Positions 4,970 to 23,508 of a stretch of 64,000 nt of DNA are shown in pieces. The notes below the pieces were generated by a model. That model did not search any database, was not told the origin of the DNA, and saw nothing but the letters and a program-made list of their open reading frames with translations. Both the position numbers and the translations under genes were made by a program. The stretch lies in sequence record PQ657784; one strand, given 5' to 3'. Position 1 is the first letter of the stretch. The number at the start of each line of letters is the position of its first letter. This stretch comes from Escherichia phage EPIMRB01.

Positions 4970-5510
4970 ATAAAAAATCCAAACTAGGAGAATCGTCTAC
5001 AACACTTTTCTTTTCAGCCCCCGGTGTTCTATAGGTTGATTCTTCGTAATGCGTCATTTTATCATAGATGTCTTGAATAAAAGTTTCATCTACTAACGCA
5101 ACCATATCGTCGTCACGGCTGTCATAGACATTGTGAACGAAGTAACTATATTTCTTTGCAACTTCCTTACGTTCTTTTTTAATACGCTGGACGAATGCAT
5201 TAAAACAAGCTTGAGTTATATACGCATGTGGGTTTTTATATTTCGTTTCATCAAAATTGTGAAGCCCCTTAATAGAAGCTTCTATACCATCTGCAATCAT
5301 TTCTTGTTTCCAAGACTGGGTGTATCCTGAAAAGTTGAAACGTTTAGATAAGCCTTCTGCAATAAGCATAATGGCTAATCCGATAGTATCATTCTGACGA
5401 ACTACTTTATTTGGGTCTTTATTATTTGCTAATTCTGTTTTCCAATCAATAATAGCTTGTAAAAGCTCTTTATTGTTTACGTAATTATATTTAGGCTTAG
5501 TTTCTGACAT
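4953..5510 (-). CDS. 55: Late-transcription sigma factor gp55
   Basis: N-terminus [24 protein letters not shown] matches T4 gp55 as recalled; about 185 aa from the second ATG. Confidence 0.9.
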
Positions 5511-5588
5511 TTTCACCTCTTAGCTCAATTCATAGATCTATTATATCATAATATTTGAAGATCTATCTTAAAGCATAGAGGATATCAG

Positions 5589-5858
5589 TTATCTAAGTAA
5601 ACAGTATGCTTGGAATACTTTTTCCATCATCTTTTTAAATTCATGAATATCTATATAATGACTAGTTAGATCAGCATGATATAAAAAGTCTAAAAACTTT
5701 TCATGTGTACTAACATATTCACTTTCATTTAATTCAGAAACATGGCTTTCCCAATATCCAACACCAGTCTTATTTGGGAAAAATGAAATTTTCATGTATT
5801 GGTCAACATAGAAAATGCCATAATTTTCAATAGTAATAGAAATATTAATAAATTTCAT
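5589..5858 (-). CDS. Hypothetical protein, 89 aa
   Basis: ORF. Confidence 0.5.
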   Translation of the reverse strand: MKFINISITIENYGIFYVDQYMKISFFPNKTGVGYWESHVSELNESEYVSTHEKFLDFLYHADLTSHYIDIHEFKKMMEKVFQAYCLLR

Positions 5859-18669: not shown

Positions 18670-19638
18670 TTATTTCAGAAGAGTAACCTCAGCGATTTCT
18701 TCCCAACCGTTTTTGTCGGTCATAATAAAGTCAGCAAGATAAAGAGCAGTACGCAGTGAAACATTGCGTAAACGATTAACATTGACTTTCATCCATGATA
18801 ATGCTTTATAAGTTTCTTCATCAGAAAGACCGCGCTTTTGCATCATGTCAGTTGAAAGAATAACATCTTCAACCCTGACCATAATTTCTTCATTAGTGTG
18901 AACACCTAAATCTAAATAAACTGAGCGGGACACTAATGCTTGTAAATGTGGAGCAAGTTTAGTACCACGGTCTAATTCGCGGTCAATGTCAACGTTTGTG
19001 ATAAAAACAATCGTTCCTTTAAATTCAAACTCACGCTCAATGCCTTTTTCTTCTAAGTAAGAAGATGCAGTGCTCCAGCAGACTTTACGGGTCTCTCCAG
19101 TGTCCAGAGCAGCTTTCAGAAGATTAAGAATGTCCATATCAGAGAAAACATCCACATCATCAATCAAAAGGACAGAATTCTCTTCACGATTATTCCAAAG
19201 CTGCTCATAAAGACCAATACCAGAGATTTTACCGTTAATGCTTTTATACTCAATGTATCCAATATCATTTGCTTTATTTAAAGCTTTATCTAAAGAATAC
19301 GTTTTACCAATACCTGCTGCACCAGAGATAATTAATGAACGAATGTTTCCGTTAATAATACCATTCGTCATCATTCCCATAACATTAAATCTTTTATTAA
19401 TGCGGGTTTTCATATCTTCATATGATTCTTTAACTTCTTCAACTTTTACACCGTCATATGAAATGTCTGATTTGTAAACCCAAACACCGCGACGTTTACC
19501 GTCAATTTCAACAAAAACTTTACCATCTCCTTGTGCATCTACCGGAGCATTATCAGGGAACCACTCACCTAAGAGTTCAAAAGTTCCAGAGATTTCTTTG
19601 CCAAAGTAGATACCCTTATTGATAGTTACAGTTTTCAT
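18670..19638 (-). CDS. P-loop NTPase (AAA+-like ATPase), about 322 aa
   Basis: Walker A GAAGIGKT; Walker B VLLIDDVD; sensor-like FITN; start at the Met after promoter and GGAGAAT RBS. Confidence 0.65.
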   Translation of the reverse strand: MKTVTINKGIYFGKEISGTFELLGEWFPDNAPVDAQGDGKVFVEIDGKRRGVWVYKSDISYDGVKVEEVKESYEDMKTRINKRFNVMGMMTNGIINGNIRSLIISGAAGIGKTYSLDKALNKANDIGYIEYKSINGKISGIGLYEQLWNNREENSVLLIDDVDVFSDMDILNLLKAALDTGETRKVCWSTASSYLEEKGIEREFEFKGTIVFITNVDIDRELDRGTKLAPHLQALVSRSVYLDLGVHTNEEIMVRVEDVILSTDMMQKRGLSDEETYKALSWMKVNVNRLRNVSLRTALYLADFIMTDKNGWEEIAEVTLLK

Positions 19639-19672
19639 TTTATTCTCCAAATCCGTATCAGTTGATAGTTGT

Positions 19673-19725
19673 ATAGTACCATAAAGCTTTATGCTTGTAA
19701 ACCGTTCTGTGAAAAATTTTTGAAA
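19673..19725 (-). promoter_or_regulatory. T4-type early promoter with conserved leader
   Basis: Reverse complement reads TTTTTCACAGAACGGTTTAC-N17-TACTATACAACTATCAACTG. Confidence 0.55.
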
Positions 19726-19726
19726 T

Positions 19727-19751
19727 AAAAAAAGGGAGCCCGAAGGCTCCC
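19727..19751 (-). terminator. Intrinsic terminator (GGGAGCC-UUCG-GGCUCCC followed by a U run)
   Basis: Plus strand aaaaaaagggagcccgaaggctccc immediately after the stop of ORF 19754..20767. Confidence 0.7.
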
Positions 19752-19753
19752 TA

Positions 19754-20767
19754 TCATTTATAATAACTTCGGTGGTTTTCAAGATAGACCTTCTCAAGGA
19801 AGTCATCCCAGAAACTCATATCTACTTTTTGCTGCATACCGTTCTTAGAAGCTTCAGTAGATGCTGCTTCTACTTGATCTACCACATCTTCCAAAAACTC
19901 TTGAACTATTTTAAATGGATGTTTACCCAACTTCACGTCGAGAATAAATGGAGCATCTTGGAGTGGATAAACCAAGTCGCCAGTTTTGTAAATTTCCAAT
20001 AGTTGGAGTCCACCACGACAAGCATGACTTAGTGCTTTCCAATCAATACCTTCATTAGCTTCGGCTTTACGAGCACGTTCACCATATTCAGCATCTAATT
20101 TGTTCAGTGACTGCTTAAGCTCAATAAGAGAAAGCGTTGTCTGATATTTACGACCCAGCACTGTATAGAACGTTTGTGGACCTGTTTTCTCATGATTATG
20201 GAACACCCATTCACAGAATTCGTTTTCTGGAAGACGATGCTTAATATCTTCAATTTTAGTGCGACGTTGTCCTTGTGTTCCATCTTCTCGGTAGACATTC
20301 CGTTGATCAGGAATTTGATTAATTACTTTCAACACATCACGTAATGCAGCTAGACGAGAACCTTTAACACCATATTTAGAGGCTTGCTTGCGGACATATC
20401 CTAAATAGGATTTCATGTTAGTCGTATAAAAACGAGAACGGTTGTCTTGAATAAACTTCCACACATCAGGCAAATCAGATTTAACCACTAGTTCAGGTGG
20501 AGTGTGAAGCATATCCAATGCTACAGTTTCACCATCTGCTGCTAATTTAAAGAAATACTTAAGACTATACAATTCGTGGTCAATATCATCTTTAGTGTTT
20601 TTAGATGATGTGTTGTTGGTATTTTTACTCATGTGCTCTTTGACATTTCCGATAAGAATATCGCGAGCAGGAGGAACAAAGATTTCTTTAAAATCTACAT
20701 CAGATTCTGGGGTAGAAGTTCCATAAAGATGACTACCGAAATAGCTTTTCATTACTGTTTTCATCAT
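19754..20767 (-). CDS. Pol-beta-superfamily nucleotidyltransferase-like protein, 337 aa
   Basis: N-terminal FGSHLYGTSTPESDVDF fits the G[SG]-x(9-13)-DxD signature; no other domain recognised. Confidence 0.55.
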   Translation of the reverse strand: MMKTVMKSYFGSHLYGTSTPESDVDFKEIFVPPARDILIGNVKEHMSKNTNNTSSKNTKDDIDHELYSLKYFFKLAADGETVALDMLHTPPELVVKSDLPDVWKFIQDNRSRFYTTNMKSYLGYVRKQASKYGVKGSRLAALRDVLKVINQIPDQRNVYREDGTQGQRRTKIEDIKHRLPENEFCEWVFHNHEKTGPQTFYTVLGRKYQTTLSLIELKQSLNKLDAEYGERARKAEANEGIDWKALSHACRGGLQLLEIYKTGDLVYPLQDAPFILDVKLGKHPFKIVQEFLEDVVDQVEAASTEASKNGMQQKVDMSFWDDFLEKVYLENHRSYYK

Positions 20768-21225
20768 TCAGCCTTATATTCAATAACAGGACATACTTTA
20801 GCTTTACGAGCTTTTAAAAATTCAACGATAATCGATTTCTTGGGTTGAATAGGAGGTAAACCTTTATTTTTCCTATCAATGTTTTCTACGTGTAAAGCAT
20901 AATCCTTTTTCCATTTATAATCTTTATATTTTTCACGCAAATGTACAGGAATAACAAATGAACCAATAATAAGTAAAACAACCAAAAGCGCAAGTATAAA
21001 TGCTGATGGAAGCAAAGTCCATAAACTACCGAAAATAAGCCATCGTTGTAGGCTTTCTGCACAAATAATTGTTAGCCCTACAAGTATAGCACATCCAAAA
21101 ATAGAAACGAAAAATGTAGGAATGACAATAGACCAAAAATATGCGCATAATGTCTTAGGTCGTTGCCATTCATCGTTAAACAATTTGAATAATTTATAGT
21201 GCCAAGAGTTTTCATTAATAATCAT
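20764..21225 (-). CDS. Membrane protein, 153 aa (two or more TM helices)
   Basis: Hydrophobic segments YFWSIVIPTFFVSIFGCAILVGLTIICA and LLPSAFILALLVVLLIIGSFVIP. Confidence 0.55.
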   Translation of the reverse strand: MIINENSWHYKLFKLFNDEWQRPKTLCAYFWSIVIPTFFVSIFGCAILVGLTIICAESLQRWLIFGSLWTLLPSAFILALLVVLLIIGSFVIPVHLREKYKDYKWKKDYALHVENIDRKNKGLPPIQPKKSIIVEFLKARKAKVCPVIEYKAE

Positions 21226-21227
21226 AA

Positions 21228-21749
21228 TTATCCTTTCATTGAAGGCGTAACGGTTGTTAAATACTTAATCATAGCTTCAGCTTCTGATTTTGATAATGAA
21301 ATTTCTTCACCGTTTTGACGAATAGAAATAAAATCCGGATGACGGTCACCACCAGCTTTTAAAACACACATATAAGTATCAGTTTCGCCTTCAATATTTG
21401 AAATGATTGAAGCAGTTCCGCATGAATGTGGTTTTTGATAAATCAATACAGCTTTTCTTCCACCGTTTGACTGTTCATAGGCTTTTAATACATCAAGCAA
21501 ATCAGTTCTTTTATCAATAGCTAAAATGTTATTTTCATCTTCAATGTTAAATCCTTCGGATACTTCATAAAGCGTTACCCATAAATCACCGATGTCAATA
21601 ACAGCATTTACTTTTCCACGGCTTTCAAGAGTATGACAAATTTTCTTGATTTCGTCATAACTCATTTTAATAATATCATCTCCTTGACTAAGAAAGATGT
21701 CATTTTTAAATTCAACACGAATTAAACCACTTCCACTTGAAATAAACAT
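21228..21749 (-). CDS. Hypothetical protein, 173 aa; paralogue of 21756..22310
   Basis: C-terminus SKSEAEAMIKYLTTVTPSM resembles TKDEAIALKTYLDSVIPTM of its neighbour. Confidence 0.55.
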   Translation of the reverse strand: MFISSGSGLIRVEFKNDIFLSQGDDIIKMSYDEIKKICHTLESRGKVNAVIDIGDLWVTLYEVSEGFNIEDENNILAIDKRTDLLDVLKAYEQSNGGRKAVLIYQKPHSCGTASIISNIEGETDTYMCVLKAGGDRHPDFISIRQNGEEISLSKSEAEAMIKYLTTVTPSMKG

Positions 21750-21755
21750 ATTTCC

Positions 21756-22310
21756 TCACTTTGAAATCATAGTTGGAATGACAGAATCAAGATAAGTCTT
21801 TAGCGCAATAGCTTCGTCTTTGGTAAATGTAATGATATGTGATCGAAAATCATCAATTTGACGAATAGATACTACATCTCCCTCTTCATAGCATTTTGAC
21901 ACATTTAAAATAGTTTCATCATTCTGATCGCAAGCGTTAGTAATAATAGCATTGCAATTTTTGAGCCATTTTAAACTATGTTTTCTTTCATTAGAATAAT
22001 AAAAATATTTAATCTTAGCTATAAAACTATCCCAATGGATAACTGATAAACACATTGACTCGCTTTTAATATTAAATCCTGGGCATGAAGAATAAAAATG
22101 AATTTTATGCTCATCATTAATGCTTACAATTTTATCAGTGTAAGCATATTCAATTTGAGTTAAACGAACAATTTCACTAGGTGTAAAATACAGCATATCG
22201 TCTTCTTGCGTCAAACGATACATATTATTTACTTTTTCTATAGCCAATTCACCAAAAAGTGGACTAACTTCTAATACTAATCGTTTCATATTAATCCTTT
22301 TTATTGGCAC
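21756..22310 (-). CDS. Hypothetical protein, 184 aa; paralogue of 21228..21749
   Basis: Shared C-terminal motif with the downstream gene. Confidence 0.55.
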   Translation of the reverse strand: MPIKRINMKRLVLEVSPLFGELAIEKVNNMYRLTQEDDMLYFTPSEIVRLTQIEYAYTDKIVSINDEHKIHFYSSCPGFNIKSESMCLSVIHWDSFIAKIKYFYYSNERKHSLKWLKNCNAIITNACDQNDETILNVSKCYEEGDVVSIRQIDDFRSHIITFTKDEAIALKTYLDSVIPTMISK

Positions 22311-22569
22311 GAATTTGTTCTAAAATTTTAGAGTATTCCTTTGTATCAGATTTACGTACAATCGATACACTATACGGCATACTATCGGTGTCTTTTATAA
22401 AGCGTTCCAAATGACATTCTAATAAAATTTCTGGATTATAAATCGTGTACATCAAATTACCTGTTGCTCCACGATATTGACAGATTTCTACTGATTGAAC
22501 ACCATTCCATAATTTTGTTAAGACCAAATCACCTACTTCTAATTTAGGAAAGCCCATGTTATTCACCAA
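22291..22569 (-). CDS. Hypothetical protein, 92 aa
   Basis: ORF. Confidence 0.45.
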   Translation of the reverse strand: MVNNMGFPKLEVGDLVLTKLWNGVQSVEICQYRGATGNLMYTIYNPEILLECHLERFIKDTDSMPYSVSIVRKSDTKEYSKILEQIRANKKD

Positions 22570-22744
22570 TTAAAGTTTCAATATAAGAATCAAGATTTAC
22601 TTTAGCTTCTTCCATAAGAGTTTTGTATTTAATCTTGTTGGCATGTCCGGAGAAAGCTGATTCATCAATAATTGTTGATGTATGAACAGCTTTACTATAC
22701 GTCTCAATTAATTCTCTTAATTTAAAAGCCTGCTCACTTGTCAT
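22559..22744 (-). CDS. Hypothetical protein, 61 aa
   Basis: First ORF after the early promoter at 22876-22910. Confidence 0.4.
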   Translation of the reverse strand: MTSEQAFKLRELIETYSKAVHTSTIIDESAFSGHANKIKYKTLMEEAKVNLDSYIETLIGE

Positions 22745-22875: not shown

Positions 22876-22910
22876 TACTATACCATAACCTTGCCAACTT
22901 GTAAACCATT
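22876..22910 (-). promoter_or_regulatory. T4-type early promoter (GTTTAC-N17-GTATAGTAAT)
   Basis: Reverse complement reads GTTTACAAGTTGGCAAGGTTATGGTATAGTAAT. Confidence 0.5.
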
Positions 22911-23082
22911 AAATGACGTTTTCGATAAAATTCTGAAGCTTTGTATGAGCATCAACCATGATTTTCATTTCTTCCTTTGCGAAAGCTGTGCCTCTTTCAC
23001 GAGAAGAACATTCATAGTCAGAAACTGCATTAGCATATTCTTCAATTAGCTTCATTAAAAACATCTGCTTTTCAGTTTTCAT
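22909..23082 (-). CDS. Small hypothetical protein, 57 aa (below track cutoff)
   Basis: ATG at 23082 to TAA at 22909, read by eye: MKTEKQMFLMKLIEEYANAV... Confidence 0.3.
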   Translation of the reverse strand: MKTEKQMFLMKLIEEYANAVSDYECSSRERGTAFAKEEMKIMVDAHTKLQNFIENVI

Positions 23083-23266
23083 TATTCCACCTAATCATTT
23101 CAAGATATTGAACTAACTTAGCTTTGGATTTATCCAAATCCTTTTTAGCTGTTTCTATACCGTCGTATGAATATCCTTCACAATGCTCAACTGCTAATTG
23201 ATATGAATCTATTTCAACATCACGTGCTAATTTAATGATTTTTTCAAACTGTTCGTGTGTTAGCAT
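23072..23266 (-). CDS. Hypothetical protein, 64 aa
   Basis: ORF. Confidence 0.4.
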   Translation of the reverse strand: MLTHEQFEKIIKLARDVEIDSYQLAVEHCEGYSYDGIETAKKDLDKSKAKLVQYLEMIRWNNEN

Positions 23267-23268
23267 AC

Positions 23269-23508
23269 TTAAACTCTCGTATTATGATCGATAATTTCAT
23301 CAAGAAACATATCTAACGCTTCTAAAGCATTATCAACTTTAGTTTCAAAGTCTTTAATGCCTTTATTCGAAATACCCGATGAATACCAAGCAAAGTCAAT
23401 CAGCTCTTCATCTGCTTTACGAATTGAAGCCACTAATTCCTTGATTTTATCTGCTTGCTCTATACTAATCATTATTCTACCACATATGACAGAGAGAATA
23501 TTGCACAC
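23269..23508 (-). CDS. Hypothetical protein, 67-79 aa (start ambiguous)
   Basis: ORF; alternative Met at 23472 would remove the overlap with the upstream gene. Confidence 0.4.

Follow-up and report, generated by a model that had tools for sequence, protein, structure and literature searches.

Two adjacent y05I (MobD.1) paralogues in Escherichia phage EPIMRB01 with a predicted three-repeat PC4-like fold and a conserved membrane-protein neighbour

Introduction

A 64,000-nucleotide (nt) stretch of Escherichia phage EPIMRB01 (sequence record PQ657784), referred to here as the window, carries two adjacent genes whose products end in clearly related sequences. An earlier note on this DNA had described them as paralogues of 173 and 184 amino acids (aa), the outcome of a local duplication followed by rapid diversification. 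The locus raises the question of how far the resemblance extends, how old the pair is and what the two proteins might do. The pair consists of ordinary accessory-gene paralogues from a heavily sequenced phage group, already represented in Pfam and PHROGs; the evolutionary reading in the note is largely wrong and its structural reading incomplete. So far as the searched literature shows, the new elements are a predicted Pur-alpha-like architecture, a gene partnership with a membrane protein, a natural hybrid gene and a scar left by mobD in phage T4. The literature searched held no paper on the y05I/mobD.1 family, on its Pfam or PHROG accessions, or on Whirly/PC4-like proteins in connection with T4. 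The sole relevant sources were an entry in an insertion-site table (PMC2988022) and a report that the region can be deleted (PMC9825161).

Both genes encode full-length y05I proteins

The paralogous open reading frames (ORFs) share one orientation, lie 6 nt apart and are apparently co-transcribed. The genes and their C-terminal motifs are as follows.

21756..22289, minus strand: upstream paralogue, orthologue of T4 MobD.1 (y05I), 177 aa from the ATG at 22289
21768..21821, minus strand: C-terminal motif of the MobD.1 copy, K157-M174 (KDEAIALKTYLDSVIPTM), with a model helix at residues 157-170
21228..21749, minus strand: downstream paralogue, 173 aa, missing from T4
21237..21290, minus strand: C-terminal motif of the 173-aa copy, K154-M171 (KSEAEAMIKYLTTVTPSM), with a model helix at residues 154-167

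The mechanical ORF of the upstream gene (21756-22310) gives 184 aa from a GTG at 22310, which falls within the 3′ end of the tudor gene upstream. An ATG at 22289 is preceded by an AAGGA Shine-Dalgarno sequence, and both the homologues and the deposited annotation begin at MKRLVLEV. The true protein therefore very probably has 177 residues and starts at this ATG, so that the ORF positions given in the earlier note stand and the length of 184 aa very probably does not.

The similarity of the two proteins is not confined to their ends. Full-length alignment, where the note had placed the possible failure of its claim, scores far better than random, with BLASTP spanning both proteins from end to end (176 columns, 28% identity, E=4e-10). 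Taken alone, the N-terminal halves are still significantly similar in local alignments against 2000 shuffles, under which N-versus-C control comparisons score at background. Both proteins exceed the Pfam gathering scores of 24.9 bits for the N-domain and 27 bits for the C-domain: PF24449 (T4_y05I_N) matches the 173-aa protein at E=1.7e-33 (115.6 bits) and the MobD.1 copy at E=1.2e-39 (135.4 bits), and PF24448 (T4_y05I_C) matches them at E=2.3e-23 (82.8 bits) and E=1.1e-21 (77.4 bits), respectively. Each also matches phrog_1502 along its whole length (E=1.9e-66 for the 173-aa protein and 1.5e-79 for the MobD.1 copy). Because BLASTP, both Pfam domains and phrog_1502 agree, the paralogy proposed for the adjacent genes is real and extends over the full length. 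The C-terminal relationship also holds, as the quoted strings are correct and the motif is conserved family-wide, with E, A, Y, L, V, P and M columns that are invariant or nearly so across the family, stand-alone C-domains included (E156, A157, Y163, L164, V167, P169 and M171 in the 173-aa protein). The N-terminal parts have diverged, as claimed, but not beyond recognition, since their halves align significantly and both carry PF24449.

Measured against T4 MobD.1, the Pfam domains and phrog_1502, both window proteins are full-length family members. The upstream protein is 90% identical to T4 MobD.1 and occupies the same genomic slot, whereas the 173-aa copy forms a separate deep branch (27% identity to MobD.1) that T4 has lost. 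The family is very narrow, as HMMER run exhaustively against 1.84 billion cluster representatives returned only 21 matches; a third homologue search with a broadened alignment brought almost no additions. Homologues of known source all come from T4-like phages, mostly Tevenvirinae. Copies at least 80% identical are found in 433 phage records for the 173-aa gene and in 412 for MobD.1. Full-length members fall into three clades, namely the T4-type MobD.1 with the Mosigvirus-type, the Gaprivervirus/Dhakavirus-type and the 173-aa type. The third repeat of the predicted fold described below also occurs alone, in proteins of 69-87 aa (phrog_7763) from Gelderlandvirus, Karamvirus, Tegunavirus and a Klebsiella phage group. 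Scans of the 531 window ORFs with full-length and per-repeat hidden Markov model (HMM) profiles revealed no further y05I copies. NCBIfam gave no match for either protein, and the PADLOC profiles of known anti-phage defence proteins gave one marginal match, of the MobD.1 copy to Orf5 (E=0.0013, 15.6 bits).

RefSeq calls homologues of MobD.1 and MobD.4 'molybdopterin-guanine dinucleotide biosynthesis protein MobD' (positions 5057-5590 and 6570-6773 of L002 and 10353-10535 of L003; L numbers are our locus handles). This name appears to be an annotation artefact, a collision with T4 mobD, for mobile (homing) endonuclease D, and there is no sequence support for a role in molybdopterin synthesis.

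Models predict three PC4-like repeats

AlphaFold2 models built on a 31-sequence family alignment were confident, with a predicted local distance difference test score (pLDDT) of 83.2 (173-aa protein) or 87.0 (177-aa protein). Structure prediction, one of the checks suggested in the earlier note, yielded the same order of secondary-structure elements in both, beta4-alpha, beta4-alpha, beta5-alpha. The models contain the PUR repeat topology (beta-beta-beta-beta-alpha), with repeats I and II as one domain. Both proteins are predicted to comprise three beta-sheet-plus-helix repeats of the PC4-like (Pur-alpha/Whirly) fold, placed as follows.

21987-22289, minus strand: predicted repeats I and II of the upstream paralogue, residues 1-101
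21759-21986, minus strand: predicted repeat III of the upstream paralogue, residues 102-177
21462-21749, minus strand: predicted repeats I and II of the downstream paralogue, residues 1-96
21231-21461, minus strand: predicted repeat III of the downstream paralogue, residues 97-173

Repeats 1 and 3 also resemble each other at the sequence level (hhalign probability 82%, E=1e-5), where '..FLSQGDDIIKMSYDEIKKICHTL' aligns with '..ISIRQNGEEISLSKSEAEAMIKYL'; hhalign gave no signal for repeat 1 against repeat 2 or for repeat 2 against repeat 3. Given the three-repeat model, the motif singled out in the note corresponds to helix alpha3 of repeat III together with an invariant VIPTM tail. The MobD.1 family hence gains a structural hypothesis, in which three Pur-alpha-like repeats end in a motif that is the likely dimerisation helix.

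The best fold matches are nucleic-acid binders, namely Pur-alpha, PBF-2/Whirly, MRP1/2 and PC4/Sub1, and SsgA-like proteins (SALPs) and DUF4176 chaperones are likewise among the matches. Foldseek against BFVD recovered essentially the family itself and weak, unannotated phage proteins. Pur-alpha, with three PUR repeats arranged as a type I and a type II domain, offers the same three-repeat layout as the phage models. According to a 2020 review of the fold, it was the sole protein reported to have both type I (intramolecular) and type II (intermolecular) PC4-like domains, and Pur-alpha and Pur-beta could heterodimerise via repeat III (PMC7549692). The phage proteins differ in that repeat III is five-stranded, in their acidity (net charge -8 and -5, isoelectric point (pI) 4.9 and 5.5, with the N-domain most acidic) and in that dimerisation and nucleic-acid binding are putative. 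No sequence relationship was detected to the type I PC4-like proteins Whirly/PBF-2 p24, StWhy2 and trypanosome MRP1/MRP2, and the tetramerisation and basic binding surface of Whirly proteins have no evident counterpart here. The single-repeat proteins PC4/Sub1, the phage T5 PC4 homologue, Borrelia Bpur and YdbC gave no profile match; single-stranded DNA binding by these single-repeat proteins uses basic or aromatic sheet surfaces.

Small proteins resembling repeat 1 occur close to some y05I genes. The Pfam DUF7189 model gives a weak match to repeat 1 of the 173-aa protein, and DUF7189 proteins of about 70 aa, bearing the pattern 'hxhxQxxDxIxL..QVEELYxxL', are encoded just upstream of full-length y05I in Gaprivervirus-type loci (L007 2281-2496; L020-L029 about 1620-1930). 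In Mosigvirus p000v, a small ORF about 350 nt upstream, with other genes between (L006 2066-2143), matches the repeat-1 profile. The DUF7189 proteins and this ORF score E=6e-6 to 5e-4 against that profile, and the former look like single-repeat relatives of y05I.

Acidic proteins encoded next to a membrane protein and their proposed role

Immediately downstream of the 173-aa gene lies a gene for a small membrane protein.

20764..21225, minus strand: phrog_944 membrane protein, 153 aa (phrog_944 E=2.5e-51, hydropathy scan)

We surveyed this neighbourhood in 24 loci with 25 cassettes, 14 of the loci coming from an unbiased IMG/VR pattern scan and 10 from outside that scan. A phrog_944 gene directly follows the last y05I repeat III in 25/25 cassettes, from at least six genera, after a gap that is usually a few bases long and does not exceed about 30 nt. 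A hydropathy scan of the window protein places hydrophobic segments at about residues 25-60 and 62-98, and its C-terminal tail is basic (net +8), whereas the y05I proteins are acidic. Upstream of the membrane-protein gene, the count of encoded PC4-like repeats ranges from one (the C-domain alone) or two (C+C) through three (one full-length gene) to four (DUF7189 plus one full-length gene) or six (two full-length genes, as in the window). The order tudor, y05I (or y05I_C alone), membrane protein is found in some Tequatrovirus loci including the window, in Gelderlandvirus (twice), in Karamvirus and in Klebsiella phage Clarke_MM3. The phrog_944 family is spread more widely than y05I (933 phage records), and in an Aeromonas phage a different protein, not y05I, precedes it. 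Such an invariant gene partnership points to a testable complex.

Salmonella phage SEA1 has two complete tandem cassettes in the syntenic region (L004 2665-4460 and 5139-6487). Both encode a protein of about 76 aa, a tudor protein and a phrog_944 membrane protein, along with either one y05I_C protein or two. Copy A additionally has a DksA/TraR-type zinc-finger gene, and its two stand-alone C-domain genes (78 and 76 aa) are a small-scale mirror of the window pair. In all nine phrog_944 proteins tested, the match to the PHROG profile, which has 235 positions, begins at position 85, so some members must carry about 84 extra N-terminal residues. At about the size of y05I_C, this extension could be a natural fusion.

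Our leading reading, held tentatively, is that the y05I proteins are a dimerising acidic PC4-like module that acts with the phrog_944 membrane protein. Repeats I and II would pack into an intramolecular domain, leaving repeat III partnerless in the monomer, so that it should pair with a second repeat III. Phages with one copy would form homodimers in this way, and those with two genes might also form a heterodimer. This acidic dimer would most likely serve as an accessory module in concert with the membrane protein and its basic tail. The stand-alone repeat-III proteins, the interchangeable modules and purifying selection described below, the unbroken adjacency and the opposite charges all speak for this proposal. 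Pairing through repeat III gains indirect support from the existence of stand-alone repeat-III proteins and from the review's statement that lone repeats do not fold (PMC7549692).

A useful analogy for a fold protein working with an adjacent membrane protein may be found in the SsgB-SepG pair of actinomycetes, in which a Whirly-fold protein is tethered by the adjacent membrane protein. The SALPs have a Whirly-like fold without nucleic-acid binding. They show no sequence similarity to y05I and are restricted to actinomycete cell division, so the likeness to the y05I/phrog_944 gene pair is one of analogy only.

The data establish homology, membership of the family, likeness in fold, gene order, selection and evolutionary history; dimerisation, contact with the membrane protein and any ligand are inferred. 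Several observations weigh against our proposal. Gene order is broadly conserved in T4-like phages, which makes adjacency alone weak evidence of interaction, and T4 keeps MobD.1 without the membrane protein. The predicted template-modelling score (pTM) is just 0.58-0.64, leaving the relative domain orientation uncertain. Structure-based identity to Pur-alpha is 4-12%, and the Pfam scan gave no Pur, PurA/PUR, Whirly or PC4 profile (PUR at E<=1), so that the fold resemblance could be convergent. All but one of the family members checked have a pI of 4.2-5.5, unusual for nucleic-acid binders. Sequence profiles of Whirly (PF08536)/MRP1/2 and SsgA-like proteins (PF04686) were not matched, and the family profile found no Pur-alpha chain among PDB sequences at E<=10, its best hits being T-cell receptor chains at E=0.33. 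In view of the low identity, the missing profiles and the acidity, we file these proteins as members of the y05I family with a PC4-like fold and not under the PUR family.

The strongest alternative, which we consider possible but less probable, is that the y05I proteins are Pur-alpha/Whirly-like binders of single-stranded DNA or RNA ('putative transcription factors' is the Pfam name) acting on phage or host nucleic acid, perhaps with NrdC.11, an RlaP-like nucleotidyltransferase. It draws on the best fold matches being nucleic-acid binders, on nearly all PC4-like domains binding single-stranded nucleic acids (PMC7549692) and on the apparent co-transcription with this RlaP-family enzyme. Against it stand the net charges of -8 and -5, with the N-domain, which would bear the binding surface, most acidic of all, as well as the lack of any Pur, Whirly or PC4 profile match and the presence of SsgA-like proteins and DUF4176 chaperones among the fold matches. 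Single-stranded nucleic-acid binding as in Pur-alpha is thus possible but, given the charge, less likely than the dimer proposal. A catalytic role for the acidic motifs LTQEDD and GFNIExE, by analogy with the PC4-like nickase AcrIIA22, was considered and dropped for want of supporting evidence.

A bolder extension of the dimer proposal, which we regard as rather unlikely, would make y05I the first non-eukaryotic Pur-alpha architecture, a type I PC4-like domain with a third repeat that dimerises, with Tevenvirinae varying the number of repeats ahead of one conserved membrane protein and a repeat-III heterodimer of the paralogues docking on the basic tail of that protein. Were this true, the locus would encode a hitherto undescribed accessory module at the membrane, which might serve counter-defence or the takeover of the host.

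An old or imported divergence

A neighbour-joining tree with bootstrap separates the T4-type and Mosigvirus-type proteins from the 173-type and Gaprivervirus-type proteins (93% support for the bipartition). The upstream copy shares 43-53% identity with single-copy Mosigvirus-type proteins but only 27% with its neighbour. For the C-domain of the 173-aa protein, the nearest relative is a Gelderlandvirus stand-alone protein (43% identity, compared with 32% to the adjacent copy), and few C-domain pairs of the family lie further apart than the two adjacent ones. Both paralogue genes are under purifying selection in Tequatrovirus, with ratios of non-synonymous to synonymous substitution rates (dN/dS) of 0.04-0.30 and similar values for the neighbouring membrane-protein gene. 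The pair is fixed in hundreds of phage genomes. Taken together, the tree, the C-domain distances, the dN/dS values and the fixation indicate that the divergence is old, or that one copy was laterally acquired, and that it is not ongoing. The data fit either an ancient duplication followed by loss or acquisition from a distant T4-like phage and cannot distinguish the two.

The same locus shows evidence of exchange between genera. RB27 (L005 2498-3040), RB18 and other Tequatroviruses have a Mosigvirus-like allele in the upstream slot beside a normal 173-aa gene. The RB27-type allele shares 48% identity with T4 MobD.1, compared with 71-79% for Mosigvirus-type proteins, which makes the locus a mosaic.

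Phage T4, which has MobD.1 only, retains a trace of the second copy. Directly after the MobD.1 stop codon, the Shine-Dalgarno sequence of the 173-aa gene survives unaltered together with the initial 19 nt of that gene (window 21731-21749; L003 9259-9277). Next comes the mobD HNH endonuclease cassette, whose start codon overlaps the end of the remnant short ORF in an ATGA, and homology returns at the nrdC.11 start codon (L003 about 8446). From the remnant and the point where homology resumes, it follows that codons 7-173 of the second paralogue, together with the entire membrane-protein gene, were replaced by mobD. The two-copy state of the window is thus the older one, and reference phage T4 represents a derived state in which the mobD cassette displaced both genes. 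The scar also narrows the search for the MobD target site and may help to locate it.

These results bear directly on the duplication proposed in the earlier note. A recent local tandem duplication in the operon, with rapid diversification that spared just the C-terminal motif, would suit the adjacency, the same orientation and the 6-nt spacing, and also the finding that the 173-type is seen in Tequatrovirus only, Mosigvirus and Gaprivervirus having a single full-length copy. We nevertheless judge it distinctly improbable, because MobD.1 clusters with its Mosigvirus orthologues away from the 173-type, the 173-type C-domain is nearer to the Gelderlandvirus protein than to its neighbour, the N-domains are conserved too, dN/dS is low and, as the scar in T4 shows, the pair is older than the T4 lineage. 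Such a duplication would require a strong, now ended, acceleration in one copy only. The weakest alternative, a chance or compositional artefact of AT-rich phage ORFs (GC about 0.34, with just 28% identity), merits practically no credence, as each protein independently passes the Pfam gathering thresholds for the same two domains, the predicted order of secondary-structure elements is identical and the BLASTP, Pfam and shuffle tests refute it.

Natural rearrangements of the locus

Some metagenomic Tequatrovirus contigs carry, between the tudor and membrane-protein genes, an in-frame hybrid gene for a 179-aa protein that takes the place of both paralogue genes (P0011; L008 3001-3540, also L009 and L010). 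Over the first ~390 nt the hybrid gene matches MobD.1 at 92.5% identity, over the last ~157 nt it matches the 173-aa gene at 95.5%, and the crossover lies in a shared GAAACT (Glu-Thr) microhomology at homologous positions within repeat III. This natural hybrid indicates that the N- and C-modules of the two paralogues are interchangeable. In a second fusion from metagenome contigs (P0049, 210 aa), the first ~50 MobD.1 residues are joined to the C-terminal part of NrdC.11, and the remainder of MobD.1 is deleted along with the 173-aa and membrane-protein genes.

In one T2 record (AP018813; L011 1440-2519) both y05I genes are broken into fragments of 44-97 aa, some of them oddly named, which may be either laboratory-strain pseudogenisation or sequencing error. 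CRISPR-driven reduction of the T4 genome removed nrdC.11-mobD.3 with viability kept (PMC9825161), and the region is non-essential in the laboratory, at least in T4.

Gene string around the pair

The 2-kb stretch around the gene pair is 100% identical to Escherichia phage AUBRB02 and 90-97% identical to several hundred Tequatrovirus (T4-like) genomes. The pair sits in a minus-strand early/middle block, with tk/rI on one side and nrdC on the other. In order of transcription the string comprises a 35-aa ORF (in the T4 mobD.2 position), DUF7438, Phage_tudor, the MobD.1 orthologue, the 173-aa gene, the phrog_944 membrane protein and NrdC.11. Its genes overlap or have spacers of 1-6 nt, each has a separate Shine-Dalgarno sequence, and the NrdC.11 start overlaps the stop of the membrane-protein gene. 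The remaining features are listed below.

22877..22905, minus strand: sigma-70-like promoter match upstream of the string, TTTACA-17-TATAGT with an extended -10 TG (consensus match only)
22559-22744, minus strand: DUF7438 protein
22291..22557, minus strand: Phage_tudor protein, 88 aa, often next to y05I genes on their upstream side (PF24144 E=2.7e-40)
19754..20767, minus strand: NrdC.11, RlaP-like nucleotidyltransferase, last gene of the putative transcription unit (PF10127 E=3.1e-11)
19733..19752, minus strand: intrinsic-terminator-like hairpin and T-run directly past the nrdC.11 stop codon (consensus match only)

The mechanical 378-aa ORF of NrdC.10, an AAA/STAND-like NTPase (18670-19806), runs upstream across the hairpin at 19733-19752 into nrdC.11. 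The deposited NrdC.10 start lies later (969 nt) and so fits the terminator-like hairpin better than the mechanical start does.

The DUF7438 gene of the string belongs to a set of four tandem DUF7438 (PF24219) paralogues of 57-67 aa, at 22559-22744, 22909-23082, 23072-23266 and 23269-23472, all on the minus strand. This set is probably the 'first' local duplication to which the earlier note alluded when it called the y05I pair a second one. The PHROGs label 'helicase loader' on one of the four paralogues looks unfounded.
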